From an uncultured Verrucomicrobiae bacterium (GTDB lineage Bacteria > Verrucomicrobiota > Verrucomicrobiia > Chthoniobacterales > JAFAMB01): 64,000 bases of DNA. Under the pieces are notes generated by a model. That model did no database searches. It worked only from the letters and a program-made list of their open reading frames with translations, and had not been told where the DNA came from. Position numbers and translations under genes: made by a program. Below are positions 14,831-61,322 of the stretch, piece after piece; the first letter of the stretch is position 1, and every line of letters starts with the position of its first letter. The stretch lies in NCBI GenBank assembly GCA_963837955.1, contig CAWIPH010000002.1, positions 10,966 to 74,965 of the forward strand. Reading direction: 5' to 3'.

Positions 14831-14977
14831 ACGTAGCCTGATCCTCCTGGCTCAGAGAGCGTGTCAGTGATCAGTGATTGGTGAGAAGTGAATAGTGGAA
14901 CTTATCGGCAAAATCTTTTGCTAATCACTAATCACCAATCACTCACCCGCACCCTGAGGCTGGAGCATCAGGCTACT
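14831..14977. repeat. MITE-like palindromic repeat element (copy 1)
   Basis: Imperfect terminal inverted repeats are GACGTAGCCTGATCCTCCTGGCTCAGAG (left) and CCTGAGGCTGGAGCATCAGGCTAC (right). The inside holds GTGATTG-type heptamers facing CACTAAT/CACCAAT heptamers. The element ends 1 nt from the stop codon of the Na/Pi gene. Confidence 0.75.
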
Positions 14978-14978
14978 T

Positions 14979-16682
14979 TCAAACGGGCAGAGCCTCGGTG
15001 GAAGCTAACTTTGCCTCGTGATTCTCCTCAACTTCAGTCGAGCTCAAAAACTTCTGATCGATCTCCGAAAAATCGCCCCGTGGCTGATCTGACTTATTCG
15101 CATTTCGAACCAAAGCATAAGCGATCGACGTCAACTGGCTGTTGATCCGCCGCAGACTATCAAGCAAATCGAGAAAGTTAGAGTTCGTAGACTGGATTGG
15201 TTTCTCCAGGCGCTGCTTACGGAAGACTCGCAATTGATTGTTAATTTCCTCTTTTTCTCGGATTAATTGTACCGCGAAGTGCTGGTCCCGTGACATAACG
15301 AGCATGGCGACTTTCGCGATGCGTTTCAGCGTGCGCGAGTAAAGAGTCTCCAGCTCTCGGCGATCTTCCGGCGAAAGTTCATGCGTCGATCGAGCTTCGC
15401 GTAATGCGGCTTCAGAAAGGTCCCGCCGGATAAGCGTGCCGACGGTGCACAGATCTTGGGCGTAGTCCAAAACAATGAGCTTCCAGTCAATATCCTCTTC
15501 GCTCAGATTCTCGTCGCTCACCTGGCTGAGATAGTCTTTAAGACCTTCCTCTGTCTGCTCGACCCGCCTTTGCTGTTCTTCGATCTTGCTTACCAGATGA
15601 ACATTCTTTGCTGAAAAGATTGCCCGGACCGTGCGTAGCATCAGCTTTAATTGATCCATTAACCGCAGTTCCTCGCGAGCGGCATGGTTGAGGGCCAACG
15701 ACGGCGACTGCAGCAGAAGCGGATCAAGATAGCTGTCGGTCTCGCCGGAGTCGTCGGAATTTGGGGATTCAACCAGGAAAACGATAATTCGGTAGATCAG
15801 CGAGAGCACAGGTAAAGCTGCGAGGCCGAGCACCAGATTGAACAACGTATTCAAATTCGCAGCCTGTCGATCGATCTCGCCCGGAAGAAGGTGGATGATG
15901 AAAGTAAACAAACGGGAACTGGCCACGAGCAAGACGGCTGCTCCGCAGCCCTTAATCAGAAGGCTGCCGATCGCGAGCCGGCGGCCCTCGATGCTGCCCC
16001 AGCCCGCAATCATCATGGTGAGCGTGATTCCGAGATTTGCGCCCAGCACCCATGGCACCATCGTCGCACCTGGAAGCAATCCGGATTGGGCTAGTCCAAT
16101 GCCCAATCCGATGGAAGCCGTCGAACTTTGAAGGATAACGGTCAGCAGTGCTGTCGCCAGAAACACTAGCAGGGGATAGTGTTCAGCGACGCCGAAGACC
16201 AGCTTCAGATCTGGATTGGCAGCGGCGACGCTTCCCGCTTTTCCGATCATTTCCATCGCTAAGAAAATCAGACCGATCCCCAGCAGCATTTGGCCGACTC
16301 CGCGAAAAATCGCGCGGTTCGAAAATAGGAATCCGATTCCTCCGGCGACAAGAAAGACACCGGCGTAGTCCTGTAAGCGAAGCGCCAGTAACTGGACCGA
16401 AACCGTGATACCGACGTTTGCTCCTAAAACGATGGCTAACATGCGCTCAGCCGTTAGCGTCGTTTCATTCAACATCTGCACCGACAACATCGCTATGGCG
16501 CTCGACGATGGCGCGACGCAGCCAGCCACTGCACCGGCGAAGAACGCTTGATAACGATTCTTTGTCATCTGTTGCAGCCAATCGACTAGTCGATTGCCTA
16601 ACAGACGATCCAGGCCTTTGCGTACGTAGCGCATGCCCAGAAGTACAAGGATGACACCAGTCGCGATATTCAGGAACGGCAT
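14979..16682 (-). CDS. Na+/phosphate cotransporter family protein (NptA/YjbB-like) with PhoU-like C-terminal region
   Basis: The N-terminus MPFLNIATGVILVLLGMRYVRKGLDRLLGNRL...SSSAIAMLSV and a repeated membrane half (TVILQSSTASIGLGIGLA) match Na_Pi_cotrans repeats. The soluble helical C-terminal ~220 aa resembles a PhoU-like region. Confidence 0.85.
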   Translation of the reverse strand: MPFLNIATGVILVLLGMRYVRKGLDRLLGNRLVDWLQQMTKNRYQAFFAGAVAGCVAPSSSAIAMLSVQMLNETTLTAERMLAIVLGANVGITVSVQLLALRLQDYAGVFLVAGGIGFLFSNRAIFRGVGQMLLGIGLIFLAMEMIGKAGSVAAANPDLKLVFGVAEHYPLLVFLATALLTVILQSSTASIGLGIGLAQSGLLPGATMVPWVLGANLGITLTMMIAGWGSIEGRRLAIGSLLIKGCGAAVLLVASSRLFTFIIHLLPGEIDRQAANLNTLFNLVLGLAALPVLSLIYRIIVFLVESPNSDDSGETDSYLDPLLLQSPSLALNHAAREELRLMDQLKLMLRTVRAIFSAKNVHLVSKIEEQQRRVEQTEEGLKDYLSQVSDENLSEEDIDWKLIVLDYAQDLCTVGTLIRRDLSEAALREARSTHELSPEDRRELETLYSRTLKRIAKVAMLVMSRDQHFAVQLIREKEEINNQLRVFRKQRLEKPIQSTNSNFLDLLDSLRRINSQLTSIAYALVRNANKSDQPRGDFSEIDQKFLSSTEVEENHEAKLASTEALPV

Positions 16683-16837
16683 ATTGTTTTCAATCTCGCT
16701 AAGGGTTTCTCACACTACATATTGGCCTCTCTATCGGCGTTATGCTGCTCATACCGTGCAGCCACATACCTATTGTAGATTCAGCCGGATTAACAACCAA
16801 CGGCCACCCCGATTAAAAAAATTTAATGAAAGAAGCG

Positions 16838-17009
16838 GACGTAGCCTGATCCTCCTGGCTCAGAGGTACATCGTGTGAGAGGTGAGAAGTGATTGGTGAA
16901 TAGTGGATGCATATCGGCAAGTCCTCGGTAGAAATCCCCATCACCCTTTCACTAATCACTAATCACCAATCACGCGCTGTACCCCTGAGCCAGGAGGATC
17001 AGGCTACGT
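16838..17009. repeat. MITE-like palindromic repeat element (copy 2, near-perfect TIRs)
   Basis: GACGTAGCCTGATCCTCCTGGCTCAGAGG (16838-16866) faces CCCTGAGCCAGGAGGATCAGGCTACGT (16983-17009). The internal GTGAGAAGTGATTGGTGAATAGTGG faces CACTAATCACTAATCACCAATCAC. It has the same orientation as copy 1. Confidence 0.8.
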
Positions 17010-24404: not shown

Positions 24405-24782
24405 GAAACTCACGCCAAGCGGCGAAAGAATCTCACGCAAAGACCCGGAGAATCTCACGCAAAGACGCAAAGACGCAAAGTTTTGAAAGGGAGTCCGGGC
24501 CGTCGAAAGCCACAGTGATTTGTGAGAAGTGATTGGTGATGGGGTGAAAATCCTCGCAAAGGTAGCGTAGCCTGATGCTCCGCCTCAGGAGATTGGCGCG
24601 CCTTGGATTCCTGAGGCGGAGCATCAGGCTACTCTGGCTTCGTTCCGCCCATAAAACGGCATCGACCGCATTGTCCGCTCAAACTTTGCGTCTTTGCGTC
24701 TTTGCGTGAGATTCGAATAAGGACCGGCGGGAGCCGATCCCTACCGGTCTTGGCGTGAGATTCTTCTTTGCGTGAGATCTCA
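24405..24782. repeat. ~380-bp nested palindrome built from 8-mer, 7-mer and TIR-like modules
   Basis: A perfect 31-bp inverted repeat pairs GAATCTCACGCAAAGACGCAAAGACGCAAAG (24450-24480) with CTTTGCGTCTTTGCGTCTTTGCGTGAGATTC (24684-24714). The central perfect hairpin pairs GTAGCCTGATGCTCCGCCTCAGGA (24567-24590) with TCCTGAGGCGGAGCATCAGGCTAC (24609-24632). GTGATTTGTGAGAAGTGATTGGTGA lies in between, and additional CTCACGC copies lie at both outer edges. Confidence 0.85.
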
Positions 24783-25520: not shown

Positions 25521-25600
25521 TAACGCCGGGAACGCCGGGAACGCCGGGAACGCCGTTATCGCCGGGAACGCGAAAACCGTGAGAAGTGATTGGTAAGACG
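25519..25600. repeat. 9-bp tandem array (GGGAACGCC) plus heptamer module
   Basis: GGGAACGCC occurs 3 times (25528-25554), followed by GTTATCGCC and GGGAACGCG and then GTGAGAAGTGATTGGTAAG. Confidence 0.85.
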
Positions 25601-29940: not shown

Positions 29941-30136
29941 GCCCATACCTGTGGCGGGGGGAAATAGCAAATAGCAGATAGCAGGGGGGAGAGAACGCCG
30001 GGAGCGCACGGGAACGCCGGGAACGCCGGGAACGCCAAAGCCAAACACCAAACGCCAAACGCCAAACGCCGCGATATCGGCAGCTAATCGGCCGTTTAAC
30101 CTGTATTCCTTTGCGCCTTTGCGTCTTTGCGTGAGG
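29941..30136. repeat. Intergenic spacer composed almost entirely of concatenated short tandem-repeat modules
   Basis: AAATAGC/AGATAGC occurs 3 times (29962-29984) and G(G/A)GAACGCC-type 9-mers occur 5 times (29991-30036). CCAAAC(G/A) occurs 4 times (30041-30068) and CTTTGCG(N) 8-mers occur 3 times (30108-30131). The array ends in GTGAGG directly at the stop codon of the next gene. Confidence 0.9.
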
Positions 30137-35640: not shown

Positions 35641-36411
35641 ATGAGCCAACCCACACGGCCGATGCTGCTCGACGTCCAAAATTTGACGAAAACATTTGGA
35701 AACTTCAAAGCGGTTGACGATGTGTCGTTTTTCGTTCGCCCCGGGGAAGTAGTTGGTCTGCTTGGTCCCAGTGGCGCCGGCAAGACCACCACCATCCAGA
35801 TGATTCTTGGATTGATTTCGCCCAGTGCAGGCAGCGTCCGAATCTTTGGACAACTCTTTGAGAAGAACCGTCAACAGATCCTCGAAAAAGTCAGCTTCAC
35901 GGCGCCGTACGTCGCCTTCCCGATCCGGCTCACGGTGTTCGAAAACCTAATGGTTTTCGCCCGCATCTATGATGTTCGCGATCCTGAATCAAAAATCATG
36001 GAATTGCTGCGGATGTTCTCGATAGAGGACCTCAGGAACAAACCAGTTTCTCGTCTTTCCTCCGGCGAGAACACGCGAGTCGGACTTTGTAAGGCGTTGA
36101 TGAACGATCCGAAGTTACTGGTGATGGACGAGCCGACTGCTTACCTCGATCCTCAAGTAGCGCTTCAGGTAAAGAATATCCTCCTCGATTTGCAGCACCG
36201 TTACGGAACAACGATTCTCTACAGCTCCCACAACATGGCCGAGGTGGAAGAGATGTGCAGCCGGATCATTTTTCTTAGCCGTGGCCGGGTGCTTGCGAGC
36301 GGCAGCCCCATAACAGTTACCCAGAGCATCCTGAAAGAGAATCGTCGGGAACCGGCGCTTAAAGAAGTGTTTCTACACGTCGCGAGGAGACGGCTGAATG
36401 AAACTAAATAG
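35641..36411 (+). CDS. ABC transporter ATP-binding protein (ABC-2/DrrA-like)
   Basis: It has Walker A GPSGAGKTT, the signature LSSGENTRV, and Walker B LLVMDEPT. Its end overlaps the permease start. Confidence 0.9.
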   Translation: MSQPTRPMLLDVQNLTKTFGNFKAVDDVSFFVRPGEVVGLLGPSGAGKTTTIQMILGLISPSAGSVRIFGQLFEKNRQQILEKVSFTAPYVAFPIRLTVFENLMVFARIYDVRDPESKIMELLRMFSIEDLRNKPVSRLSSGENTRVGLCKALMNDPKLLVMDEPTAYLDPQVALQVKNILLDLQHRYGTTILYSSHNMAEVEEMCSRIIFLSRGRVLASGSPITVTQSILKENRREPALKEVFLHVARRRLNETK

Positions 36412-37612
36412 AATCAAGGCCATAATCTTCCGGCACTCTTGCGAAGGGAGACGCAATTTGAGCCGGGTCACCGAGATGGTGTATTGGCCGGTGCAGAACA
36501 TCGTTGTCTGGGGGTTTTTCACAATTTATCTTACCCGGGACAACCACCTGCAGCCGGGAATAGTTAGTTTTCTCTTAGGTGCGGCCATTCTGTGGGGGAT
36601 GTTCTATGCATTCCAGCGTGATCTGGCGGCGGGCTTCCTCGAAGAACTCTGGTCTCGAAACCTCATCAACTTATTCTCTACGCCGCTGAGCATCTCCGAA
36701 TATTTGACCGGCCTCATCATTGTCAATCTGGTCAGAGCCATGGTGGGAGTTCTGGCAGCGGGCCTAACTGCGTGGCTCTGCTTCGGCTATGAAATCTCCT
36801 CGAAACTGTTAGCAGTTATTCCCTTTATGTTGAGTTTGACTCTCTTCGCGCTCGCTGTCGGTGTGATAATTACCGGTCTGATTGTCAGGTATACCACCAA
36901 GATCCAGACGCTGGCCTGGAGCTTTGCTGGCTTACTGATGCCGTTCTCGTGCGTATTCTATCCTTTTAGCTCTCTTCCCAAATGTTTGCGTCCGGTCGCC
37001 TGGGCTCTTCCCACTACTCATGCTTTCGAAGGGATGAGGCAGGCAATCGCCGGAGGAGGCTTTGCGCTGCCGCATTTCGAGTGGGGGATTATGCTAAATG
37101 CGTTCTATCTGGTGTTGGCTGTCCTGGTGTTTCGCCGGATGTTTGAATCTGCACGTGCCCGAGGTCTGCTTAGTAAAGCTAGAGTAGGGAACGTTGGGAA
37201 CGCCGGGAACGCACGGGAACGCCGACAACGCCGACAACGCCGACAACGCCGACAACGCCGACAACGCCGACAACGCCGAGAACGCCGAGAACGCCGAGAA
37301 CGCACGGGAACGCCGGCTTGTCCGACGACCGTGTCCGACGAAGCTCCTCCGCTACATCGGCGACGTTCCAAGGATCAGCGAAGTCGGAAGCCTGCCGGAG
37401 TTTCAAACGACGGAGCGAAGTTGGAGAGCGCATTTTTCGGTAGTGCCAGAAATGTGTTGCCAATCGCGAGCTCCTCTGTAAAGAATCGCCTCTGCTGCGC
37501 AACCCTCCGCGCGCCGGCAATCGGTTTCTCGGGGAATCGGCTATGGACCAGTCCATCATATTGCACAGCCATGTGCCAAAGACGGCGGGCACCAGCGTTT
37601 CGGCGCATCTAG
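36398..37612 (+). CDS. ABC-2 type transporter permease; the conserved part ends at about 37180 and the ORF then reads through a 9-bp repeat array
   Basis: About 260 aa are polytopic membrane protein (...WALPTTHAFEGMRQAI...LVLAVLVFRRMFESARARGLLSKA). This is followed by GNVGNAGNARE(RRQ)x6(RRE)x3 and ~95 aa of Arg-rich, non-protein-like sequence. That tail overlaps the next gene start at 37543. Confidence 0.7.
   Translation: MKLNRIKAIIFRHSCEGRRNLSRVTEMVYWPVQNIVVWGFFTIYLTRDNHLQPGIVSFLLGAAILWGMFYAFQRDLAAGFLEELWSRNLINLFSTPLSISEYLTGLIIVNLVRAMVGVLAAGLTAWLCFGYEISSKLLAVIPFMLSLTLFALAVGVIITGLIVRYTTKIQTLAWSFAGLLMPFSCVFYPFSSLPKCLRPVAWALPTTHAFEGMRQAIAGGGFALPHFEWGIMLNAFYLVLAVLVFRRMFESARARGLLSKARVGNVGNAGNARERRQRRQRRQRRQRRQRRQRRERRERRERTGTPACPTTVSDEAPPLHRRRSKDQRSRKPAGVSNDGAKLESAFFGSARNVLPIASSSVKNRLCCATLRAPAIGFSGNRLWTSPSYCTAMCQRRRAPAFRRI
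37187..37314. repeat. 9-bp tandem repeat array
   Basis: The order is GGGAACGTT, GGGAACGCC, GGGAACGCAC, GGGAACGCC, GACAACGCC x6 (37224-37277), GAGAACGCC x2, GAGAACGCAC, GGGAACGCC. It belongs to the same unit family as 25528-25572 and 29991-30036. Confidence 0.95.
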
Positions 37613-38397: not shown

Positions 38398-38715
38398 AAA
38401 TCTCACGCAAAGTCGCAAAGGCGCAAAGAATGGGAGGCGGAATCCAGAATGTTTGGCACAGAAGTAAACGGAGATAACGGTTCGGCTGAGCCGTCGGGCG
38501 GCTCCACTCGAAGCCAATCTATCTCCCCGGTCACCTTCAATTCAAAATTCGTCTTTGCGCGAGGCTTTAACGGATTTCCGTACTGCGCGTTCCCTCGCAC
38601 TTCTCACCAATCACCTCTCACCAATCACATTGGCTTCGACCGGAGCTCAGCCGCGCCTTTGCGTCTTTGCGTGAGATTTTCTAAGTCCGTTCTCCTTTGC
38701 GCCTTTGCGTGAGGC
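38398..38715. repeat. Modular inverted-repeat element filling the intergenic spacer
   Basis: AAATCTCACGCAAAGTCGCAAAGGCGCAAAG (38398-38428) faces CCTTTGCGTCTTTGCGTGAGATTT (38655-38678) and CCTTTGCGCCTTTGCGTGAGGC (38694-38715). The heptamer module CACTTCTCACCAATCACCTCTCACCAATCAC lies at 38598-38628. Confidence 0.85.
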
Positions 38716-38716
38716 T

Positions 38717-39805
38717 CTAACGGTTCACCGGCTCTGCGCTACTCAGATGTTCTTTGAGCACACTCGTTGACACGCTGTCAGCTCGACTTACTTCCCCGAT
38801 GTTCCTGGTTTCGCGAACGTTGTAGGTGCTTTTACCCTGCGACTCATAAAACGTCCGCATGAGCATTTCGGCCAGGAGCCCGAGCAGGATACACATCATC
38901 GCGATCATGAACGTCATCACGACGATCAAAGGTAACGGCGTTGTGATGAAGTAGGTATTGTGAAACAATTTCAAGTAAAGCATCCACAAGAAGGCACAGC
39001 CGCTCACTGCCAGGCTGAATACGCCGCAACCACCAAAGAGATACATCGGTTTACTGGCAGCCCGATCGAGGAACTTTACGACTAGCAGATCTAGCAGGAC
39101 CTTTAAGACCCGCTCGAATCCATACTTGGACTCTCCCGTCCGGCGCGGGTGATGGTTAACCACCAGCTCGGTAATCTTTGCTCCGTGCCAGGAGGCGTAG
39201 ATCGGCAAAAAACGGTGCATCTCACCGTATAGGCGGATTCCATCGACTACCTGTCTTTTGTACGCTTTGAGCGAGCAGCCGAAGTCATGCAGCCGTACTC
39301 CAGACACCGCTGAAATCAGCCGGTTAGCCAGGATGCTCGGGATGTTGCGCTGGATGACATTATCCTGACGGTCTTTTCGCCAACCCGAAACAACGTCGTA
39401 GCCCTGTGCCAAAAGTTCTAACATCCGCGAAATGTCGGCCGGATCATTTTGCCCATCCCCATCCACCGGAATAATGACGTCACCCTTAGCGAAATCGAAA
39501 CCTGCCATCATTGCGGCGGTCTGGCCGAAGTTTCGTTTGAAGTGGATCACCCGGATCCGCTGATCCGAATCGGCCAATCGATCCAGGATTTCCGCGGAAT
39601 TATCCGTGCTACCGTCGTTGATGAAGATAATTTCCCAAGGCTTCCCCAGCCGCGTCAGCTCCTGTCTAACTCCCTGGCTGAGGTCGACCAGGGCCTCCTC
39701 TTCGTTGTAAACGGGGACAACAATCGAAATCAACACCGTGGCCAGCTTCGTAAGAGAACCGTAAATGTCAACCAACTGGACGCACGCCTTCCCGAATTTC
39801 TGCAA
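38717..39805 (-). CDS. GT2 polyprenol-phosphate sugar synthase-type glycosyltransferase (ArnC/GtrB/DPM1-like)
   Basis: ISIVVPVYNEEEAL...IIFINDGSTDNSAEIL...IRVIHFKRNFGQTAAMMAGFDFAKGDVIIPVDGDGQNDP is the characteristic GT2 block. It has two C-terminal TM helices. The track start is a TTG, and the GTG at 39736 (VLISIVVP) is an alternative. Confidence 0.85.
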   Translation of the reverse strand: MQKFGKACVQLVDIYGSLTKLATVLISIVVPVYNEEEALVDLSQGVRQELTRLGKPWEIIFINDGSTDNSAEILDRLADSDQRIRVIHFKRNFGQTAAMMAGFDFAKGDVIIPVDGDGQNDPADISRMLELLAQGYDVVSGWRKDRQDNVIQRNIPSILANRLISAVSGVRLHDFGCSLKAYKRQVVDGIRLYGEMHRFLPIYASWHGAKITELVVNHHPRRTGESKYGFERVLKVLLDLLVVKFLDRAASKPMYLFGGCGVFSLAVSGCAFLWMLYLKLFHNTYFITTPLPLIVVMTFMIAMMCILLGLLAEMLMRTFYESQGKSTYNVRETRNIGEVSRADSVSTSVLKEHLSSAEPVNR

Positions 39806-46721: not shown

Positions 46722-48126
46722 ATGGAGATACTTTCTAGAATCGCTAAGTTACCCGCCGCTCAGAAGCTTGGTGAATTGATCGACCGCTTTGTCGCGCACT
46801 TCCTGCGCCGAATCGACGATCGGTTGCGCCGAATCGATGATCGGCTGAATCGAATCGATGATCGGCTGCGGCCAATTGACGATCGACAGGATGCGGTAGA
46901 AAGGCTGGTCGTTTCGACTTTGTTGCCGCCCAAAGAGGCAGGTTATGACGTCATAGTGACTGCGAGCGAGGTGAGTGAGAAGCACGGTGCGGGTCTCTTG
47001 TTACGTCGAGCCTTCGATACTTGTCCTCAGATTCTCTCGGTTCGTAGCGCTGATGATTTCAAGGGTGAAAAATCATTCGGAGAGGAAAGCTTCCTGGTGT
47101 CTCACGGGTGGTCATCTCGTCCGAATTGGTTCGCCCATACGCTTCAACAATTGAGAGGAAGAGTGGCGCGTCGGGTGATTTGTGTACCCTATCAGCTGGA
47201 TGAGTTAAAAACCGCGATCACCCTGAAAGAAATCTATGGAGCTCCTATTTGTCTCTGGTTGATGGATGATAAGAGCGTCACGAATCATCAGATTCCATAC
47301 GAGCTGATGAGAGAGTTTCTGGGAAAGTGTTCGTTGCGGTTGACGACCCACGCCGAGCTGCGAGACGCGTATGAACGCGCATTTGGGTTCAAATTCTACC
47401 TTTTTCCGGCTGTGGTCTCCGAAAACTTGATCGTGAAAGAAATCAGAACTCCGCGAGGGGAATTTATGGCGGAAAAGAGAGGGGCGATCTTTGGGAGCAT
47501 TTCGAGCCGGAAATTGGCAGATAAGCTCATGCAGACGATCAAGGTGTCGGGACTGCAGTGTGACTGGTTCGAGAACAATCACCTGCCGAGCTTTGAATTG
47601 AGCGATAGTGAGTTGACGGAAGCAGGGGTCACTCGCCAAGGCATTATTCCGGAGGAAGAGCTTCCCGGCCTGCTCGGACGGTATCCTTACCTTATTGTGC
47701 CCACAGGGGACTTGGATCCCGATGATCCGGAAACGCCCTTGGCTCGGTTGAACTTGCCGGGTCGGATCCTTTTTGCGATGGCGACCTCAAACACACCTTT
47801 CATTGTGCTGGGGCACCCGGATACGCCCGCTGCTCGCTTCGTTAGAGCATTTTCAAGTCGGCTTGCGGTCAGACTATGAGCCCGACGGTTTTTCCGCTGC
47901 GGTCCGGAGCATTGTCGAAGAGAAGACTCAATATGAGATGCGATCGAATGCGGTTGGCGTTGCGCCACTCCTTAGCAGCAAGGGCGCCAGCGACTGGGTC
48001 TTCCGTTCCCTGGAAATGGGCAAGGCTTGCGACGATCGCTTCGAGCGACTAATGCCTTCAGTGGTTGGGGATAAATATTTTTCCCCGTCGATTGAAGGCT
48101 ATTTTTCGCCGGCGATCGGTGGATGA
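46722..48126 (+). pseudogene. Paralog B of the triplicated uncharacterised family, with a 1-nt frameshift at about 47844
   Basis: ORF 46722..47879 carries EVSEKHGAGLLLR, LMDDKSV and LNLPGRILFAMATSNTPFIVLGHPDTPAARFV, then goes out of frame. ORF 47773..48126 continues EHFQVGLRSDYEPDG...ASDWVFRSLEMGKACDDRFERLMP. It is collinear with paralogs A and C. Confidence 0.65.
46806..46889 (+). repeat. 21-bp x4 in-frame tandem repeat encoding heptads RRIDDRL/RRIDDRL/NRIDDRL/RPIDDRQ
   Basis: The four units are CGCCGAATCGACGATCGGTTG, CGCCGAATCGATGATCGGCTG, AATCGAATCGATGATCGGCTG and CGGCCAATTGACGATCGACAG. Confidence 0.95.
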
Positions 48127-52297: not shown

Positions 52298-53095
52298 ATG
52301 AAAAGTCTTCTCGAGCTACCAAAGCGACAGTATCTGATCCGGCAATACCTAGCTCGTCAAATCGGCCAGCGTTACAAGGGTACAGCTTTAGGGGTTCTGT
52401 GGTCTCTAGCTTCGCCGATCTTCATGCTGCTGGTCTATACGTTTGTGTTCGCTACGGTCATGCATGCTCATTTTGGAATTTCAAAGTCCGAGACAACGCT
52501 GGACTATGGCTTGGCGCTTTTCTGTGGGTTGAACCTTTTCAATTTCTGCGGCGATGTCATCATGCGCTCTCCCTCACTAATTCTTAGTCAGCCCAACCTG
52601 GTTAAGAAAGTTGTGTTCCCGTTGGAGATTCTTCCACTCATCAGCACGCTGGATGCCTTGGTCCATTGTGTCATTGCCTTCATTCCCCTGTTCCTAGCTC
52701 TGGCGATCTTGCACGGTACTGTGCCTTGGTCTTTTGTTTTTTTGGCCGCCTTTCTGATTCCTGCGGCGCTGATTGCGCTCGGATTAAGTCTGTTACTTTC
52801 CGCCATCGGAGTCTTTATCCGCGACGTGCAAAACATGATGACTCCAGCAGTAACTGTCCTCATGTTCGGAAGCGCTGTCTTTTATCCCCTCGCGACCGTG
52901 CCCGACTGGATCCGGCCATGGTTTCAGTTAAATCCCTTAGCCCTGATCATTGAAAACTCCCGAAGAACTCTCATTTGGGGATTGCCCTTGGGGATACCGC
53001 AGCTTGCTTTCGCCAGCTTGTTGGGATTGGTTCTTGTTATAGTGGGATTTTTGTTTTTTGAGAAGTCCAAGCCGGCTTTTGCCGATGTGATGTAA
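52298..53095 (+). CDS. wzm: Polysaccharide ABC-2 exporter permease (Wzm/TagG type)
   Basis: YLIRQYLARQIGQRYKGTALGVLWSLASPIFMLLVYTFVF is the canonical Wzm N-terminal block. The protein has 6 TM segments and is 265 aa. Confidence 0.85.
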   Translation: MKSLLELPKRQYLIRQYLARQIGQRYKGTALGVLWSLASPIFMLLVYTFVFATVMHAHFGISKSETTLDYGLALFCGLNLFNFCGDVIMRSPSLILSQPNLVKKVVFPLEILPLISTLDALVHCVIAFIPLFLALAILHGTVPWSFVFLAAFLIPAALIALGLSLLLSAIGVFIRDVQNMMTPAVTVLMFGSAVFYPLATVPDWIRPWFQLNPLALIIENSRRTLIWGLPLGIPQLAFASLLGLVLVIVGFLFFEKSKPAFADVM

Positions 53096-53101
53096 GCCGC
53101 T

Positions 53102-54538
53102 GTGAGTAGCCTTTCTGACCTTTCTATTTGCGAGACGCCGCCGGTTGCTGCGCAGGAGACGTTGCTCAGTCTCGATCAAATCTCTAAGTCCTATCGGTTG
53201 TGGAACCGTCCTTATGACCGGCTCTTCTATGGGATCTGGAACCAGGTTCCTGGGTATGCTCCGGATCTGATCAGACGTCTGGCAAATCGTCAAAAGGCTG
53301 GACTCGGAAAGGAAGTTTTCGCCCTCGCTGAAGTGACTCTGTCGATTCGGAAAGGTGAAAGCGTTGGGATTATCGGCCGCAACGGCAGCGGAAAGAGTAC
53401 CCTCTTGCAGCTTATTGCCGGGGTCCTTCAGCCTACTTCGGGACGAATTCGGGTGGATGCGAAGCGCGTAACAGCTTTGCTTGAATTGGGCAGTGGGTTT
53501 GATCCGAATTTCACGGGGCGGCAAAACGTTCTGCTGCACGGTTCACTGCTTGGTCTCACCGAGGAAGAGAATCACGCGCGGCTTAGTGAGGTCCTTGATT
53601 TCTCTGAGATCGGCGATTATTTCGATCGCCCGGTCAAGACCTATAGCAGTGGCATGATAGTTCGACTAGCGTTTGCGTCTTCCATCACCGTCCGAGCCGA
53701 TTTATTGATCGTGGACGAGGCGCTAGCGGTCGGCGACATCTTCTTTCAGCAGAAGTGCTTTCACAAGATTCGGGAGTTGGTCAAGGCCGGAGTGACCATC
53801 CTGCTCGTCTCGCATGACTTGCGCTCGATCAGCGAGTTTTGTGATGAGACGCTTTTGCTGGACCACGGTCGGGTCATCTTCTTCGGAGACTCTAACGTGG
53901 CGATTGACCGCTACTACGGCATGACAAAATCGTTCATTTTGGCCGCGCCGGGCGGAGCACGGAAACAGGCTCCGGCCTCGAGCCTATCATCTGTCGAGGA
54001 ACCTCCCCCGGTGCTGATGGAGTCGATTCCCCGGCCAAAGGTGGTTCCATATGAAGACGCCGTTGCGACGTTCCTTCATTTCGCTCTCCTGAATCATGAA
54101 GGAAAGCCTACGAACCTGTTTCGACAAGGCGAATGGCTGACGTTGCTCTTTGACGTCGAAGTGTTGGCTGACGTCGAAAACTTAAGCGCAGGGGTTGTCT
54201 TTCGGGATGACCGGAGAACGTTTTTGCACAGCAAGTACGAATTTCAGACTGATCTAAGGAGTCTGCGCATTGGCAAAAAGGGAGATCATTTTAGAGTCAG
54301 TTATGAGGTTCGTCTCGATGTCGCGCCGGGCCACTATACCCTATCGCTTGACCTGATATCTGTGCCCGCCGAGGCAATAGCTGGCGGAAAATTGGCCTTT
54401 CTCGATTACGAACGCCATTTCCGTCGCGTTTGTCATGCTGGAGATCTTGTTGCGATCACCGTGGGCTTTAATCCTAGCCGTGAAGGCGCGGAATTCTCTC
54501 ACCTCGGGCTCTTCGACCTGCCCACCCGTTTCGACTGA
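53102..54538 (+). CDS. wzt: Polysaccharide ABC exporter ATPase (Wzt/TagH type) with a ~220-aa C-terminal extension
   Basis: It has Walker A GRNGSGKSTL, the signature YSSGMIVRLAFA, and Walker B LLIVDEALAVGD. Residues ~255-478 form an extra beta-rich domain (...FLHFALLNHEGKPTNLFRQGEWLTLLFDVEVLADV...HYTLSLDLISV...), positioned like the Wzt C-terminal glycan-binding domain. Confidence 0.85.
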   Translation: MSSLSDLSICETPPVAAQETLLSLDQISKSYRLWNRPYDRLFYGIWNQVPGYAPDLIRRLANRQKAGLGKEVFALAEVTLSIRKGESVGIIGRNGSGKSTLLQLIAGVLQPTSGRIRVDAKRVTALLELGSGFDPNFTGRQNVLLHGSLLGLTEEENHARLSEVLDFSEIGDYFDRPVKTYSSGMIVRLAFASSITVRADLLIVDEALAVGDIFFQQKCFHKIRELVKAGVTILLVSHDLRSISEFCDETLLLDHGRVIFFGDSNVAIDRYYGMTKSFILAAPGGARKQAPASSLSSVEEPPPVLMESIPRPKVVPYEDAVATFLHFALLNHEGKPTNLFRQGEWLTLLFDVEVLADVENLSAGVVFRDDRRTFLHSKYEFQTDLRSLRIGKKGDHFRVSYEVRLDVAPGHYTLSLDLISVPAEAIAGGKLAFLDYERHFRRVCHAGDLVAITVGFNPSREGAEFSHLGLFDLPTRFD

Positions 54539-54577: not shown

Positions 54578-55513
54578 CTACCTCGATAATGAGGCCGCCC
54601 GGAAGCGCGGCAGTTCTCCCTGGCACCAGTGAAATGCTTTCAAGAACAATTGATAGTCGTGAAAGAAAAGGATTTTTCCCCAACCCACTTTTGACGCACT
54701 CGTCAGATTTGTTGCCATCCGAACGAACTCTTCCCCTTCGACCCGAAAGATGATGATATGCCAGTAATACTCTCGGTCGCGCATTTCGCCAATGACGTCG
54801 GATGAGTTAAAAGGCCGTTGGATCTTGCTATTGCGGTCTTCTCCCTGGAATTCGGCTTGAACGACGGCTGGACGAACTGAACCGAGTCCCCGCACGACCT
54901 CAAGCTCGAGTCCTTTGGCGTCAATCTTCAGAAAATCGATGCTCCCCGGGACCGTTCCGGACGCGGCCAGGGCTGCGAGGGTCGTTGCCGTCGAGGAGTT
55001 CGATTCGGGGGATCCAAGCGCTAAATTGAAGATTCTAACACGTGGTCGACCAGCCATTCGAGCGTTCAATCTTTCGAAGGTTTCGGGTACTGCTTCAAAG
55101 CAAAACACCTCATAGCCGATATCCAGAACTGCCTCTGCAAAGTCACCCGAGTTGGCGCCGACGTCGAAAAGCACACGGTTCGGAAGGAAGTTGTAAAGGA
55201 ATCCAGCCAAATCAGATTCTGGCTCACTTTGCGAGAACATATCGGTCCACAACCATGGTTCGGCCCGACCAGCAGACCAAGCCATAACCGATTTGAGGCG
55301 GTTCACATGTTCAGAAAGTCGCCGAATTTGGTCCTTGGTTCTAATGCCCGTCTGTTCAGTTCTACCAAGGCCCGATTCCAGCCGCCCCAAATGGTTTTCC
55401 AGCCGTCCCAAATGGCTGATTGTAACTTCCAGTTTGTGGCGGACGTCATCTATCCCCAAACCGCTTTGGGCTCTTCGGGAAATTGAGTCTCTAATTTTGT
55501 TTACGATCGACAT
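54578..55513 (-). CDS. Coiled-coil + FkbM-type methyltransferase (intact paralog)
   Basis: A GGAGG motif lies 9 nt upstream of the ATG at 55513. The N-terminal heptad region is HLGRLENHLGRLESGLGRTEQ...IRRLSEHVNRLKS. The FkbM blocks are LFDVGANSGDFAEAVLDIGYEVFCFEAVPETFERL...FLKIDAKGLELEVVRGLG. Confidence 0.7.
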   Translation of the reverse strand: MSIVNKIRDSISRRAQSGLGIDDVRHKLEVTISHLGRLENHLGRLESGLGRTEQTGIRTKDQIRRLSEHVNRLKSVMAWSAGRAEPWLWTDMFSQSEPESDLAGFLYNFLPNRVLFDVGANSGDFAEAVLDIGYEVFCFEAVPETFERLNARMAGRPRVRIFNLALGSPESNSSTATTLAALAASGTVPGSIDFLKIDAKGLELEVVRGLGSVRPAVVQAEFQGEDRNSKIQRPFNSSDVIGEMRDREYYWHIIIFRVEGEEFVRMATNLTSASKVGWGKILFFHDYQLFLKAFHWCQGELPRFRAASLSR

Positions 55514-55636: not shown

Positions 55637-56527
55637 ATGGATGTGGCACATTTCCCCCTCTTCCTTCACTGTCATATCCCAAAGACGGCCGGTGTAAGTG
55701 TAGGCCAGCTTCTTGATTCCACTTTTCATCCTTATCACTTCAATCATTACCATTCTGATCCCCTCTATGTTTTGACTCCTCCAAGGCTCGAGACACTTCT
55801 CAAGATCACACCAACGCTAAGGTCAATCTCTTCGCATAGCCTGCGCACCTTTCCGCGTCAGGTCTGCGGTCGGAAAACCTGTTATATCACTTTTCTTCGT
55901 GATCCTACGGCTGCGTTTGTCTCGCTGCTGAAATATTGCCGTGCTGAATACCGAGCAGGACACCTTTCGGCGGAAGCGCGATGGATGTGGCCGGATGACA
56001 CTCCAACCCGAAGTCTGCGCGATCTTGCTGAATGGTTTCTCGACCAGATCGGAGCTGAGAATTCCTATTCGCCGCAAACGCGTTTTTTCTGTTCTCCGGA
56101 ATCAATGCGAAAAGCTGGTTTCACGGTGGAACATCAGTATGGCGAAGATTGCTTCGAAGTGGCCTCTATGATCTTAGAAAGATTTTTGTTTGTCGGGGTT
56201 ACCGAGCAGATAGAGAAAAGCGTCAAGCTGCTGATCGGCAAGCTAAAGAAACTCGGCATCCAGGTACAGGAACCCGCGTTACCCCACTCGAATCGATCCA
56301 GTTCGAGCGAGGATCTTTCCTGGCTGACGATGAGGGACAAGGTCGGAAAACGTGTGCTAACCTGCAACGAGGTTGACCAGCAGCTTTACGATCGATTCCG
56401 GCTCGCTCTGGAACGCGAATATGCTCGGTTTCAGGAATCGGCTGAAATTTTGGATATTTCCGAGGCTGAACAAACTGCCGGGCCGATCTGTGAATGGGCT
56501 GCGTCTAGGTTTCTGGAGAAGGTTTAA
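55637..56527 (+). CDS. Sulfotransferase family-2-like protein (intact paralog of 37543..38387)
   Basis: HCHIPKTAGVSVGQLL resembles the 5'-PSB loop. YITFLRDPTAAFVSLL resembles the 3'-PB motif. An RBS GGGAGG precedes the ATG. Confidence 0.65.
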   Translation: MDVAHFPLFLHCHIPKTAGVSVGQLLDSTFHPYHFNHYHSDPLYVLTPPRLETLLKITPTLRSISSHSLRTFPRQVCGRKTCYITFLRDPTAAFVSLLKYCRAEYRAGHLSAEARWMWPDDTPTRSLRDLAEWFLDQIGAENSYSPQTRFFCSPESMRKAGFTVEHQYGEDCFEVASMILERFLFVGVTEQIEKSVKLLIGKLKKLGIQVQEPALPHSNRSSSSEDLSWLTMRDKVGKRVLTCNEVDQQLYDRFRLALEREYARFQESAEILDISEAEQTAGPICEWAASRFLEKV

Positions 56528-56581: not shown

Positions 56582-57982
56582 TTACCAGAGACCGGCGGTG
56601 AGCAGGGCCTCTCGGGCAAACACCGCGTCCTGTTGAATGAGTCGACCGGTTGGAGAGTGTCGCCAACAACCGGCATTGTCGAAATACTCAAACCCGAGGT
56701 CGCGAAGCTTTGCCATCATTTCGAAAAATGTCTTTGCCGTCGGCGCATATCGGCCCATCGAGAGTTCAAGGCAAATAACATCGACTTGCTGCAAGAATCG
56801 AGTGGCGCCATCCAGGACGAGATGCTCCCCGAACTGTACATCGATTTTCAGCAGCCCTTTCCCCGAAATCGATTGTTGAGAACTGATTTCGTCCAGCGTG
56901 CGGACCGGAACCAGAACACGCTCCCACTGACGGTCGGGGGAGTGCTCGGCACCATCCAGAAAGCTACTTGAATAAAGATCTGGAGAGACATTCAATTCTG
57001 TCTCTGAGTTTTTGTCACCCGCGGCACTTGCGATAGCGACATATTCCGGGTGCAGCGTGTATATAGAGTTATCCAGTTGCCGGTATTTCTCGAGCAACGG
57101 CTCGATCAAATAGAACCGGCTATTTGGGAAAACTCGGCTAGCGATGAGAGACCAGTAGCCGGTTGAGGCTCCGACATCGACGATAAATTCTGGCCGATAT
57201 CCCGCCGCTCTTAGCCGATAGAGAAAATGGAAACATGGGTGCATGCTCCAGTGGATGCTTCTTGGTGCCGATGGATCTACGTAGGGGGCCGTACGATCTG
57301 CAGTTTCTCGACTCGCACGCTTCTCGGGCTCATCGCTAGCCGGAAAACCGTCCTCCAAGGAATCCAGGATGAGGCGCAGGATTTCGTTACTTTGCCGCGA
57401 GCCCTTTTCGCCGGGGGTTTTCTCGGCGAGTGAGAATTCCGGCAAGAGCCAGACAGGTTTACCCACGCTGGTTTGCACATAGGAGCGAGTCGACGCCGAC
57501 ACAGCGAAGGTGATTCTGGCCTTCCCGAGAGCCTCTGCCAAAAGGCCGCCGGCCCGGTTATCCTTTTGAAAGCAGTTGTCCTGGGCCAAGACGAGAGCCA
57601 TCGGCGATCCCGTAATATCGGCGGTCGCAGTTGCCGCGAAAAGACCTTCGGCATCCTTGGCTACAGCCACTACCCGATCGATTCGATATCTATTCAGAAT
57701 CTCAGCAATCCGGAAATAGGCCAAGGACCGCCCTTTGGTATTTCCCTCAATTAATGGAATGTCCGGAATGGGTAACTCTGTTTCGGCCTCTTTGGCGTCG
57801 ACGAAGAGGGCGACCAAGTTGTTTCCGGTAAATAATCGCGAGCTATCGAGGTGAGCGAATGACTGACTATGCGGATCGGATGGGACCACCAGAAAACAAG
57901 CCGCGGACGATCGAGGTTCGTCGGCCCTTATTTTGGATTTCCCTGCGGTGCCGAAAAATTTATGAAAATCGAGCGATGCCAT
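56582..57982 (-). CDS. Two-domain protein: unknown ~230-aa N-terminal domain fused to a FkbM-type methyltransferase
   Basis: The C-terminal half reads FIVDVGASTGYWSLIASRVFPNSRFYLIEPLLEKYRQL...LLKIDVQFGEHLVLDGATRFL...VICLEL, which is FkbM-like. The N-terminal half reads ...VALFVDAKEAETELP...RVVAVAKDAEGLFAATATADITGSPMALVLAQD... and has no recognised family. Confidence 0.7.
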   Translation of the reverse strand: MASLDFHKFFGTAGKSKIRADEPRSSAACFLVVPSDPHSQSFAHLDSSRLFTGNNLVALFVDAKEAETELPIPDIPLIEGNTKGRSLAYFRIAEILNRYRIDRVVAVAKDAEGLFAATATADITGSPMALVLAQDNCFQKDNRAGGLLAEALGKARITFAVSASTRSYVQTSVGKPVWLLPEFSLAEKTPGEKGSRQSNEILRLILDSLEDGFPASDEPEKRASRETADRTAPYVDPSAPRSIHWSMHPCFHFLYRLRAAGYRPEFIVDVGASTGYWSLIASRVFPNSRFYLIEPLLEKYRQLDNSIYTLHPEYVAIASAAGDKNSETELNVSPDLYSSSFLDGAEHSPDRQWERVLVPVRTLDEISSQQSISGKGLLKIDVQFGEHLVLDGATRFLQQVDVICLELSMGRYAPTAKTFFEMMAKLRDLGFEYFDNAGCWRHSPTGRLIQQDAVFAREALLTAGLW

Positions 57983-58814: not shown

Positions 58815-60005
58815 TCAACTGAAAATGCGTTCGAATCGCTCATCGATCGGGTGACCGCATTCCAATGAACGCCAGATGAAGTCGGCCAACCCGTGCGAAG
58901 AAAACGCTGCGCTGAGTTGGTTGGCATGAATGCGGATCTCATTGAAACGGGACGGGCTGGTAACCTGGTGAACCGCCCTTTGGAGTGCGCCCGAATCGTA
59001 GGGACATGATGTCCCAAGATCAAGTTTGCGAACGAATTTGGCGGCCGCCGTTTCTTCGTGGCCAAGCACGATAATAGGAATATTGGCGGTGGCCATCAGG
59101 TAAATGATCCGGGACGGCAAGCTGGACTTGGCCAGCCAGTTGTGGCTGCTGCCTTTTTCTAACGTCCCGCTCGGAACGATCGCAAAATCGGCGTTGCGCA
59201 GCTCTTCCACCAGCTCCGGGTCGGGCAGCATCGAGCGAAGGTAGATACCTTCGGACTCCAGTTCCGGAGGATCGAGGACAATAAATGGTTTCCCCGCGTT
59301 GCCGAACCAGTCGACCGATAGACCGGAAGCCCGGACAGTTGCTCGAAAACTGTTTAGCATGTCCAGGCTCCAGACGTTTCCAATCAAAGCTCCTCTAGGT
59401 GATTGGCGCTTATATCGAGCCAACCCGCTCGGGGCGAACAATGCAGGATTGGCCACCGGGGGTATAATCCAAAATTTAGTCTTAAACTTCTCACCGTAAG
59501 CGCGACAGAGAGGCTCCGAAATCGCGAAGCGAATATTGGCTTGGGCGACCAAGGCTGACATCAAGTCATCAGATATTTCCTGTACGTGAATGTTTTGATC
59601 ATCCATTACGTAGAGGGCGATCGGCGCGTCAAAAATCTGGGCTGCCGCTAAAGTGGAGAGGACATCGTCGGGGTAGAAGGGCACCGAAAGAATTCTTCTT
59701 ATCCCGGCCCCGCTCAGCTGGGCTCGGATTTCCTTCCGAGCGCTTTCCAAAGAGCCGCCCGGATGCTCTACGTGAAGAGAGTGATCACCGATCTCATTCC
59801 GCTCGAAAAACTTCCGAGAATGGCAAATCAGGAGTTGTTCTTCTTCTTGAAAGATGTTCTTTAGCAGCGCTCCGGTACCGTGACGAAGAGAGACTTCCGC
59901 GTGAGTTACTAACAGAGATGCCCGATCGAAATCGGCCAGATCGCGTTGAGCGGCGGCTTTTGCTGGGGCGCCTTTCCAGAATTTTCTAATAACCTTCAAC
60001 ATCAA
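58815..60005 (-). CDS. Uncharacterised protein, paralog C of the triplicated family (intact)
   Basis: It carries EVSLRHGTGALLK, VMDDQNI, SSLPSRIIYLMATANIPIIVLGHEETAAAKFVRKL and ADFIWRSLECGHPIDERFERIFS. It is 396 aa and is the first gene of a minus-strand operon with two FkbM genes. Confidence 0.65.
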   Translation of the reverse strand: MMLKVIRKFWKGAPAKAAAQRDLADFDRASLLVTHAEVSLRHGTGALLKNIFQEEEQLLICHSRKFFERNEIGDHSLHVEHPGGSLESARKEIRAQLSGAGIRRILSVPFYPDDVLSTLAAAQIFDAPIALYVMDDQNIHVQEISDDLMSALVAQANIRFAISEPLCRAYGEKFKTKFWIIPPVANPALFAPSGLARYKRQSPRGALIGNVWSLDMLNSFRATVRASGLSVDWFGNAGKPFIVLDPPELESEGIYLRSMLPDPELVEELRNADFAIVPSGTLEKGSSHNWLAKSSLPSRIIYLMATANIPIIVLGHEETAAAKFVRKLDLGTSCPYDSGALQRAVHQVTSPSRFNEIRIHANQLSAAFSSHGLADFIWRSLECGHPIDERFERIFS

Positions 60006-60095
60006 CTCGCCTGGTAGTATTTGCGATTTACTGGCTGTTCAGCCTTACTTAGAGCAGACTTCCGACAAATCCTTCAGCAAAATCCACAGACTTCT

Positions 60096-61322
60096 ATGGG
60101 ATTGGACGTTCCAGTTCTGTTTCTCATTTTTAACCGTCCCGAATTGACGCACCAAGTCTTTCAAACGATTCGCGCCTCTCGGCCTGCCCGACTCTATATC
60201 GCCGCCGACGGGCCCCGAGCGGAGAAAGCCGGAGAGTGGAAGCTTTGCGCTGAAACCCGGGAGGTTGCAAAGAAAATAGATTGGTCCTGTGAGCTCAAAA
60301 CTCTGTTTCGAGACGACAATCTCGGGTGCGGACAAGCCGTCAGCGAAGCGATCGGTTGGTTTTTCGATCATGAGGAAAAAGGGATCATTTTGGAAGATGA
60401 CTGTCTGCCGGACGCGAGCTTTTATCCATTTTGTGGCGAAATGTTGGATCGATTTCAGGATGAGGATCGGGTTGGGTCGATTTCCGGGAACAACTTTTTG
60501 CCTCCTTCCTTGCATGCTTCTCAGCCTTATCTCTTCTCCAAGTACGTTCAAATCTGGGGTTGGGCGACCTGGAGGAGGTTTTGGAAGTTCTATGACTTTG
60601 ATCTGAAGGGCGAAGAAGAAGAATGGGAAAAGATCATTCGCCGGGTAAATCCCGTTGATAAGCACGCCCGTTATTGGCTCGAAATTTTTCGTGCGCTGCG
60701 ATCAGGGCTCATTGATACCTGGGATTACCAGGTGATGTTTTCCGCTTGGAAGGCCGACTTGGTTCACATTTATCCGAGTCGAAATCTCATGTCGAATCTT
60801 GGTTATGGCGACCATGCGACTCACACCAACTTCGAGAGCCCAGTCGCTCAGCTCGCGACCGGATCGATCGAGAATTTTCAGGTCACCCTTCCGGTGGTGA
60901 TTGATCCGATGCTCGATGACGCGACCTTCTATTTTCGGTTTCTTGAATCGCTGACCAACGTCTGGTGGTTGGAGCAGGCCTTGGACCTCACTGAGAAATT
61001 GGCTTGGAGCCGTTGGCAAATTAACCAAGCTCAAAAGGAAGTCACCCAGCTCAAGGAGGTCTGTGACGACCAGGCTCGACAGGTCGCGAAAATTGCGGCG
61101 ACCAGGTCCAGAGCAATCTACCGAACCAACCTGGTATTGTTGTTGTCGCACTGGGTCTATACAATGCGCGAAGCGTTAACGTTGGCTCGTACCCGATTCA
61201 ACCGAATGATTGGAAGACGGCGTCTGAGTGACCGAGGAACTTCTGGAACGGACACAGAGGAAAAGAAACAGCTCGTTTCGCCGGAAATCGAGCGAGCCGG
61301 CCGCGTTCATCCCGACCGATGA
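60096..61322 (+). CDS. GT-A-type nucleotide-diphospho-sugar transferase-like protein with a coiled-coil C-terminus
   Basis: VPVLFLIFNRPELTHQVFQTIRASRPARLYIAADGPR...GCGQAVSEAIGWFFDHEEKGIILEDDCLPDASFYPF includes a DxD-like EDD. The C-terminus is WQINQAQKEVTQLKEVCDDQARQVAKI. The start is set at the ATG at 60096. Confidence 0.6.
   Translation: MGLDVPVLFLIFNRPELTHQVFQTIRASRPARLYIAADGPRAEKAGEWKLCAETREVAKKIDWSCELKTLFRDDNLGCGQAVSEAIGWFFDHEEKGIILEDDCLPDASFYPFCGEMLDRFQDEDRVGSISGNNFLPPSLHASQPYLFSKYVQIWGWATWRRFWKFYDFDLKGEEEEWEKIIRRVNPVDKHARYWLEIFRALRSGLIDTWDYQVMFSAWKADLVHIYPSRNLMSNLGYGDHATHTNFESPVAQLATGSIENFQVTLPVVIDPMLDDATFYFRFLESLTNVWWLEQALDLTEKLAWSRWQINQAQKEVTQLKEVCDDQARQVAKIAATRSRAIYRTNLVLLLSHWVYTMREALTLARTRFNRMIGRRRLSDRGTSGTDTEEKKQLVSPEIERAGRVHPDR

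Follow-up and report, generated by a model that had tools for sequence, protein, structure and literature searches.

Two genes in a 64,000-nucleotide stretch of contig CAWIPH010000002.1 from an uncultured Verrucomicrobiae bacterium (the whole stretch is called the window below) carry tandem 21-bp repeats that encode heptads of an N-terminal helical stalk. Gene A (54578–55513, minus strand) translates into a 311-residue protein with a conserved N-terminal helix, a heptad stalk and an FkbM-type methyltransferase-like domain, while gene B (46722–48126, plus strand, as judged from its translation and its ortholog P0071) encodes a predicted GT-B fold glycosyltransferase with an N-terminal helical stalk and contains a +1 frameshift. 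In both arrays a single heptad (21 bp) has been duplicated in frame; the copies are few and partly decayed, and they lie in N-terminal amphipathic helices. The instance in the window is modest and the interest lies in family-wide behavior: among relatives of A the stalk gains and loses whole units between two conserved anchors. We tentatively favor the view, to which we give slightly less than an even chance, that such changes retune a molecular spacer comparable to the coiled-coil ruler WbdD, which would make stalk length a determinant of the glycan assembled at this locus.

The arrays were located with Tandem Repeats Finder, which returned 33 rows for the window, only two of them with a period of 21. 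In gene A the array covers 55376–55415 (1.9 copies, 94% matches); read along the minus strand from 55417 to 55376, it consists of AGCCATTTGGGACGGCTGGAA followed by AACCATTTGGGGCGGCTGGAA, which are identical at 19 of 21 bases and encode SHLGRLE and NHLGRLE. The gene B array covers 46803–46885 (4.0 copies, 80% matches), and its four units at 46806–46889 on the plus strand encode RRIDDRL, RRIDDRL, NRIDDRL and RPIDDRQ, placing leucine and isoleucine at the a/d positions; neighboring units have 19, 18 and 13 of 21 bases in common. Adjacent 21-mers matching at at least 19 of 21 positions occur at exactly two loci in the window and at none in each of 200 shuffles, which rules out a chance origin of both arrays and argues that the repeats in genes A and B are real duplications. 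An earlier note on this DNA had described the near-identical pair at 55376–55417 and four units in gene B. The observation is confirmed at both sites, except that the gene B units lie on the plus strand and the third and fourth differ from the RRIDDRL that the note had assigned to all four. The same note had counted a degenerate third unit in gene A at 55355–55375 (minus strand). This heptad, SGLGRTE, shares five of seven residues, but with either neighbor only 7 of 21 bases, which is the background level within gene A, and we therefore reject it as a third DNA repeat unit and regard it as an older duplicate visible at the protein level only. Arrays of many near-identical units are absent here: with two units in gene A (19/21) and four units at 80% identity in gene B, high slippage rates are not expected, and the arrays in this genome (2 + 4 copies, 80–90% identity) are remnants, not hypermutable sites. 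A faint period-21 DNA signal (14–15 of 21) was also seen at 4150–4218 and 4462–4521, within gene 3728–4900 (minus strand), where it corresponds to the Ala/Gln-rich coiled-coil hairpin of an HlyD-type membrane fusion protein unrelated to A or B; the gene can be read as an internal control for the faint 21-base periodicity that heptad proteins leave behind.

The likeliest start of gene A is the ATG at 55513, which has GGAGG in front of it, and the 311-residue product is identical to public database protein P0001. An AlphaFold2 model of the monomer, built with 38 homologs (mean predicted local distance difference test, pLDDT, 74.8), predicts a helix at residues 3–18, one continuous helix at residues 21–81, a disordered linker at residues 82–97 and a Rossmann-type domain. 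The stalk, residues 21–81 (55271–55453, minus strand), is predicted to be a single alpha-helix of 61 residues in one heptad register, and both repeat units (55376–55417), together with the older heptad (55355–55375), fall within it, the two units in the middle. In that one register the count of large hydrophobic residues at a/d positions is 13/18, a value reached in 0/5000 shuffles, and the enrichment persists when one repeat unit is deleted from the test. The helix in front of the stalk (residues 3–18; 55460–55507, minus strand), delimited by alignment A1 and the AlphaFold2 model, has a net charge of +3 and ends in the motif QxxLGID, of which Q16, L19, G20, I21 and D22 are almost invariant in alignment A1. 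The hydrophobic moment of the family consensus indicates amphipathicity (P = 0.007), and the conserved helix is a candidate docking or membrane-binding element. A targeting motif common to A and B (MxI..+I...G.ID) was considered as well and rejected, as profile–profile comparison gave it a probability of 5% over 8 columns.

The methyltransferase-like domain of A occupies residues about 98–300 (54614–55222, minus strand), as delimited by alignment A1, partial Pfam and NCBIfam matches, and Foldseek. TIGR01444 matches residues 114–171 (55.2 bits against a cutoff of 37.7) and PF05050 matches residues 176–225 only (37.4 bits against a cutoff of 22.7); on these profile matches A is assigned to the FkbM family as a member with an incomplete core. 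A Foldseek comparison of the modeled C-terminal domain with PDB methyltransferases returned the class I S-adenosylmethionine (SAM)-dependent methyltransferase fold, and alignment A1 shows that A keeps SAM motif I, DVGANSGDF, and the FE after strand 2. BLASTP gave no more than weak similarity between A and the other FkbM genes of the window.

Neither gene B nor its paralog matches a Pfam or NCBIfam family by sequence. The open frame of B at 46722–47879 (plus strand) encodes a 385-residue product; the syntenic ortholog, P0071, has 484 residues and shares 69% identity with B. AlphaFold2 models P0071 (pLDDT 89.7) with a helix at residues 11–84 followed by a GT-B fold, for which Foldseek returned MshA (E 2.7e-11) and also PimA, HepE and WaaG, the GT4 enzymes MshA, PimA and HepE being closest. 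Judged from this model, B is a GT-B glycosyltransferase with the two-Rossmann-domain fold. Its stalk follows a single uninterrupted heptad register (hydrophobic a/d 11/16, P = 0.003), and the models of A and P0071 together with the a/d statistics thus bear out the earlier placement of both arrays in helical, heptad-patterned segments. That placement had come with the claim that B is a paralog of A, which we reject: BLASTP pairs B instead with 58815–60005 (minus strand), a paralog without the stalk (33% identity over 302 residues, E 1e-50). Two further observations concern this glycosyltransferase family. The product of the FkbM methyltransferase gene at 56582–57982 (minus strand) shows weak similarity, in its N-terminal half, to the first domain of the B-family enzymes, and fusions of a GT-B domain with a C-terminal FkbM domain, about 650 residues long, occur among the GT-B relatives (e.g., P0076 and P0081). 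At the position of the gene B array, P0071 carries a different 21-bp array (RFEEVQx, 3.2 copies), and a third relative has ILERQRE three times; since the units differ at the same place in relatives, the expansions in the B family must have arisen independently. A search of PDB sequences with profiles of both families gave nothing significant; the best matches of the A-family profile (E 0.067) were coiled-coil constructs.

The behavior of the repeats is seen far more clearly among the homologs of A. These proteins share two near-invariant anchors, the N-terminal helix with QxxLGID at its end and, ahead of the enzyme domain, an (R)xEPW motif, and the distance from anchor to anchor ranges from 32 to 144 residues in 49 homologs, with 60 in A; modulo 7, the length leaves 4 in 23 of them, as in A, and 0 in 18. 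Several stalks are near-perfect heptad arrays, such as KLDVIG[S/P] x14, LDVIGSK x9, LDVAGSK x7–8 and LDVMSSK x5, the units being mostly of 7 residues and some of 10, 11 or 14. In a minimum spanning tree of 47 A-family proteins, 37 edges change stalk length, and 19 of these changes are multiples of 7 where chance predicts 1 in 7 (binomial P = 1e-7). At the DNA level the units measure 21, 30, 33 or 42 nt, the reading frame is always kept, and one gene, in L007, contains 14.0 copies of a 21-bp unit at 93% identity. Two independent gene pairs, 85–88% identical in DNA, differ by exact 42-bp indels inside their arrays. Ten clusters of proteins at least 90% identical were examined for length variants, and 6 of the 10 contain variants located inside the arrays: SASIE[AT][KM] occurs in 2, 3, 7 and 13 copies, LDVMSSK in 5 versus 2, a 14-residue unit in 2 versus 1, an 11-residue unit in 1 versus 0, and LESTTTR and LDSLSNR each in 1 versus 2. 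In 387 kb of related loci, of which the A-family genes account for 9.5%, arrays of period 21, 33 or 42 are concentrated in those genes. The unit identities of 93–98% found in arrays point to ongoing expansion or homogenization focused on the stalk segment.

The same process extends beyond the closest relatives. On two Verrucomicrobiota contigs a second, more divergent stalked paralog lies beside the A-family gene (L003 4513–5469 and L039 3001–3903), and the two differ by an exact 42-bp indel, with WMKDLSQ three times in one and once in the other. An exhaustive profile search (E up to 0.001) yielded 536 clusters at 50% identity, the distant ones being complete FkbM methyltransferases with N-terminal helical regions of 65–350 residues, many of which also carry tandem repeats of 7, 11, 14 or 21 residues. 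The titled genome matches are all metagenome-assembled genomes of Verrucomicrobiota; the family is widespread and was met here mostly in Verrucomicrobiota from soil, and no description of a stalked FkbM-like family was found in the literature searched. Length heterogeneity in multiples of 21 bp, which the earlier note had suggested looking for, is accordingly present in the protein family, in the form of 42-bp indels and of arrays of 2 to 13 copies, and the gain and loss of whole stalk units between conserved anchors is an observed property of this family.

The genes around A belong to a glycan locus, as the earlier note had supposed. A wzm gene for an ABC-2 permease of an ATP-binding cassette (ABC) transporter (52298–53095, plus strand; PF01061, E 8e-23) is followed by wzt (53102–54538, plus strand), whose product combines an ATPase (PF00005) with a C-terminal Wzt_C carbohydrate-binding domain (PF14524, 49.5 bits against a cutoff of 30.4); wzt is convergent with gene A, and their ends are 40 bases apart. 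On the other side, a sulfotransferase gene (55637–56527, plus strand; PF03567) is divergent from gene A across a 123-bp gap. The locus also contains a GT4 glycosyltransferase, a DegT-type aminotransferase (one source names near-identical members of its cluster perosamine synthetase), no fewer than three further FkbM genes, one of which (56582–57982) gave a weak RfbT match, and several other methyltransferases. The presence of wzm and wzt with Wzt_C next to glycosyltransferase, methyltransferase and sulfotransferase genes identifies the locus as one of ABC-transporter-dependent glycan assembly. A search with Rfam gave no RNA genes in the window.

This neighborhood is conserved. Across most related loci, the gene immediately upstream of the A-family gene encodes either a GT-B enzyme of the B/58815 family or an FkbM protein, the ends of the two genes frequently overlapping, and the A-family gene is often convergent with wzt–wzm; DegT, methyltransferase and GT4 genes recur as accessory genes, as do families 44487, 60021 and 43540. 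In the window, as in L002, L031 and L036, Wzt_C is present in the Wzt whose gene adjoins the A-family gene. Two unrelated metagenome contigs (L007, 5629–6384, and the contig of P0013) have a sulfotransferase gene immediately after the A-family gene. Sulfation of the glycan is a possibility, and the stalked protein may act for the sulfotransferase. The gene at 60021–61322 (plus strand) encodes a 433-residue protein without a family match that recurs in most related loci; its C-terminal part resembles a coiled coil with a hydrophobic helix after it (…QINQAQKEVTQLKEVCDDQARQVAKIAA…NLVLLLSHWVYT…), and the protein is a possible membrane-anchored partner of the stalked enzymes. Upstream of the main locus, regions 35641–37612 and 38717–39805 contain a second ABC-2 type permease (36398–37612) and a GT2 glycosyltransferase, and the window may have two glycan systems of the ABC-dependent kind. 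Short tandem repeats of a different type form clusters, mostly at gene ends, at 14860–16980, 23390, 24457–24707, 25522–25571, 29960–30132, 37187–37316 and 38406–38709. Their units are the 7-mers TCACTAA and AACGCCA, the 8-mer CTTTGCGT in both orientations, and the 9-mers AACGCCGGG and GGGAACGCC, in up to 14 copies; the array at 37187–37316 is translated as RRQRRQ… at the tail of the second permease open reading frame (ORF).

The data presented above have led us to propose a model in which replication slippage or unequal recombination between units would add or remove units with the reading frame intact and, where the units are of 7 residues, with the a/d register preserved as well. The stalk would form an oligomeric coiled-coil spacer fixing the distance of the C-terminal domain from the docking site of the N-terminal helix, which could be the membrane, or the adjacent GT-B glycosyltransferase or polymerase, and hence from where polymerization takes place. 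The protein would then act as a WbdD-like ruler with reversed domain order, and the gain or loss of units would retune the spacing and with it, probably, glycan chain length or capping. ABC-transporter-dependent loci are the known setting of coiled-coil rulers (PMC11231755, PMC5082667), and a WbdD-like spacer role is plausible; oligomerization, docking and any effect on glycan length are inferred. The repeats, the predicted helices with their heptad pattern, the unit-wise variation across the family and the conserved gene neighborhood are the observations on which the model draws.

A number of findings weigh against this model and call for caution. The first group concerns the enzyme domain. 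Compared with P0018, a full-length relative, the core of A is short by about 45 residues, with DAKGLE at the site of DxEGxE, and a PF05050 match is left in only 2 of 38 A-family members; most stalked members have lost the SAM-binding motif (GAADSEF for GANxGDF) and up to about 100 core residues, the best-conserved part of alignment A1 being the C-terminal block YYWN..FR...F.RM.TNL...WG...FF.D.QLFLKA.HWC...LPRF. Given these degenerate cores, in A as in the family, the distal domain may be a non-catalytic adaptor instead of a terminating enzyme. The second group concerns the stalk. Helix 21–81 of A is predicted with only moderate confidence (block pLDDT 56–75, in a monomer model), the amphipathicity of its own N-terminal helix is not significant (P = 0.14), and several arrays in the family contain units with Gly, Pro or much Thr (KLDVIGP, IDTRTAT) that would not readily form a helix. 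A comparable array of N-terminal heptads, in the polysialic acid O-acetyltransferase NeuO of the E. coli K1 prophage CUS-3, did not form the coiled coil proposed for it (PMC3046976). Moreover, 18 of the 37 length changes in the tree are not multiples of 7, these edges centering on proteins with 10-residue and other units, and the stalks of B and its ortholog are 17 residues apart in length, again no heptad multiple; the heptad phase between the fixed ends is therefore not strictly conserved. A third group concerns this genome and its relatives. Gene B is frameshifted here: relative to the syntenic ortholog DNA in L008 it contains a one-base insertion (window 47840–47850), the extra base falling at 47844–47845 of the plus strand (cgtt-A-gagcat), and its product is short by about 100 conserved C-terminal residues. 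The missing C-terminus is intact in another frame (ORF 47773–48126), with 94 downstream codons open and conserved, so the frameshift is either that of a recent pseudogene or a sequencing error. In the clade of L001 and L016, the neighboring Wzt lacks the carbohydrate-binding domain. Finally, the three available sources, namely the genome, Logan run ERR11571140 and JGI 3300063339, all have the array in the same copy number: the Logan assembly encodes a protein identical to A with two units, and the JGI contig a 99% identical protein, also with two units, whose DNA is identical over the first 214 bases of the gene including the repeats. The repeat region being identical in all three sources, variation between strains of this lineage was rejected, and the heterogeneity sought by the earlier note does not extend to it; the next relative of A is 48% identical. 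The interpretation given in that note, of a built-in means of varying glycan chain length, is thus partly supported.

Several of these findings would be accommodated by the alternative that fares best, namely that the helix only oligomerizes or tethers and that the heptad changes produced by slippage, which many coiled coils undergo, are harmless, the stalk drifting in length within tolerated limits and being no tuning device. We consider this possible, if rather unlikely. Drift would account for the half of the length changes that are not heptad multiples, but not readily for the strong over-representation of multiples of 7 (P = 1e-7) in the other half. It would explain why unit sequences are wholly different between clades and even between orthologs; the arrays with units at 93–98% identity, however, are embedded between flanking motifs that are both near-invariant. 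Decay of the local arrays, with B at 80% identity and the third unit of A at DNA background, and the lack of variation within this lineage are as drift would have them, and a weak period-21 signal is found in the same window in the unrelated HlyD-type coiled coil, whereas the wide range of stalk lengths (32–144 residues) and the fast turnover, which takes copy number from 2 to 13 among proteins at least 90% identical, argue for more than passive change.

In its most extended form, the spacer model would make the stalked FkbM-like family, many members of which would be catalytically dead, an adjustable ruler or adaptor for glycan assembly with an ABC transporter, whose stalk is an in-frame variable-number tandem repeat (VNTR), with 21-bp slippage leading, inside a population, to standing variation in chain length or capping that is graded and not on/off; the two short arrays of the window would then be the quiescent end of the VNTR spectrum. 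This is a speculative proposal, which we think unlikely to hold in all its parts.

A second alternative takes its lead from NeuO, in that the heptads would extend an acceptor-binding surface or scale the efficiency of the enzyme, with no role as a distance spacer. The position is the same: in NeuO, too, heptads in variable number stand at the N-terminus of an enzyme that modifies a polysaccharide, right in front of its catalytic domain (PMC3046976). The units of the window are Arg/His-rich (HLGRLEN, RRIDDRL), and sulfotransferase genes adjoin A here and its relatives on two other contigs, so that the glycan may be anionic. The units of other clades, in contrast, have no net positive charge (LDVIGSK, SASIEAK, LESTTTR); A and B have hydrophobic a/d seams, where the NeuO heptad RLKTQDS has only one hydrophobic residue; 21-nt units never shift the frame; and most family members appear to be without a working catalytic core. 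We regard this dose effect as quite improbable. Least probable of all, and very unlikely in our judgment, is that at least the long Gly/Pro/Thr arrays form a beta-solenoid, a beta-roll or a disordered segment and no coiled coil: some arrays do have Pro or Gly in every unit (KLDVIGP), two members match PF21300, the 7-residue-repeat grass antifreeze beta roll, weakly (best E 6e-4), and the NeuO heptads are disordered in the crystal (PMC3046976), but AlphaFold2 predicts continuous helices for A and the B ortholog, a/d occupancy is significant, coiled-coil families are matched by more members (NPV_P10 by 4, UPF0184 by 4, the matrilin coiled coil by 1), the only weak PDB matches of the profile are coiled-coil constructs, and the units of the window lack the x-x-N-x-V-x-G pattern.

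The spacer model is best judged against the proteins on which it is patterned. In the ABC-transporter-dependent pathway a coiled-coil protein is a marker of chain-length control (PMC11231755), and, according to PMC5082667, which cites Hagelueken 2015, insertions in and truncations of the WbdD coiled coil raise or lower the modal chain length. The comparison takes in WbdD of E. coli O9a and K. pneumoniae O3 together with other coiled-coil terminators of O-antigen assembly in this pathway, WbbB of O12, ORF7 of O4 and ORF6 of O7. Like WbdD, A has a methyltransferase-type domain at one end of an extended predicted coiled coil and is encoded beside wzm and wzt, with a Wzt that carries a carbohydrate-binding domain; in relatives of A, the gene for a partner glycosyltransferase is adjacent. 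Unlike WbdD, a methyltransferase-kinase, A is of the FkbM type (PF05050, TIGR01444) and has no sequence relationship to it, Pfam and NCBIfam giving FkbM matches only. The stalk of A is N-terminal and the enzyme C-terminal, whereas the coiled coil of WbdD is C-terminal; its 61 residues would span about 9 nm as a helix, compared with about 20 nm in WbdD; and the enzyme core is degenerate in most A-family members. No report of natural tandem-heptad copy-number variation in the known glycan-assembly rulers, and no paper linking FkbM with a coiled coil, Wzt or chain-length control, was found in the literature searched.

Among enzymes that modify polysaccharides, NeuO comes closest as a precedent for N-terminal heptads encoded by a VNTR: it has 1 to 31 heptads among isolates and an activity that rises with copy number, and its crystal structure excluded the proposed triple coiled coil (PMC3046976). 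NeuO and A share N-terminal heptads that derive from tandem DNA repeats and are identical in NeuO. The DNA unit of NeuO is 7 nt, so that slippage switches the gene on and off, whereas the units here are of 21 nt or longer multiples of 3, which always stay in frame, so that there is no on/off phase variation. The NeuO heptad RLKTQDS lacks the a/d seam present in A and B, and NeuO is a left-handed beta-helix acyltransferase where A has a methyltransferase fold. A further point of reference is RfbT (WbeT) of V. cholerae. This FkbM-related methyltransferase, encoded in an ABC-transporter-dependent locus, caps the O1 antigen at its terminal perosamine. The locus in the window resembles it in having a perosamine-synthetase-like DegT gene and, in 56582–57982, a weak RfbT match, although A itself gave none; to our knowledge, RfbT lacks a repeat stalk at the N-terminus and is not known to affect chain length. 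In-frame tandem repeats that alter the length of an elongated helical protein between strains are familiar from the streptococcal M proteins and the Yersinia needle ruler YscP. These are surface or secretion-apparatus proteins, and we know of none that is a cytoplasmic glycan-assembly enzyme encoded beside an ABC exporter.

Coiled-coil O-antigen rulers are known from a few enterobacterial proteins, in which effects on length have come from engineered insertions and deletions only. The A family makes comparable stalk edits naturally, with near-identical proteins containing 2, 3, 7 or 13 heptads, and its degenerate methyltransferase cores raise the question of whether a ruler can do without a capping activity of its own. 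If the length of the stalk is irrelevant to the glycan, the family nevertheless illustrates clearly how fast repeats can turn over within one helix between invariant motifs. If stalk length controls chain length, the family would show that the length of a surface polysaccharide can be tuned in small steps, would place a frame-preserving, repeat-driven form of surface variation beside the known on/off phase variation, and would supply a ready allelic series for the ruler model outside the Enterobacteria.

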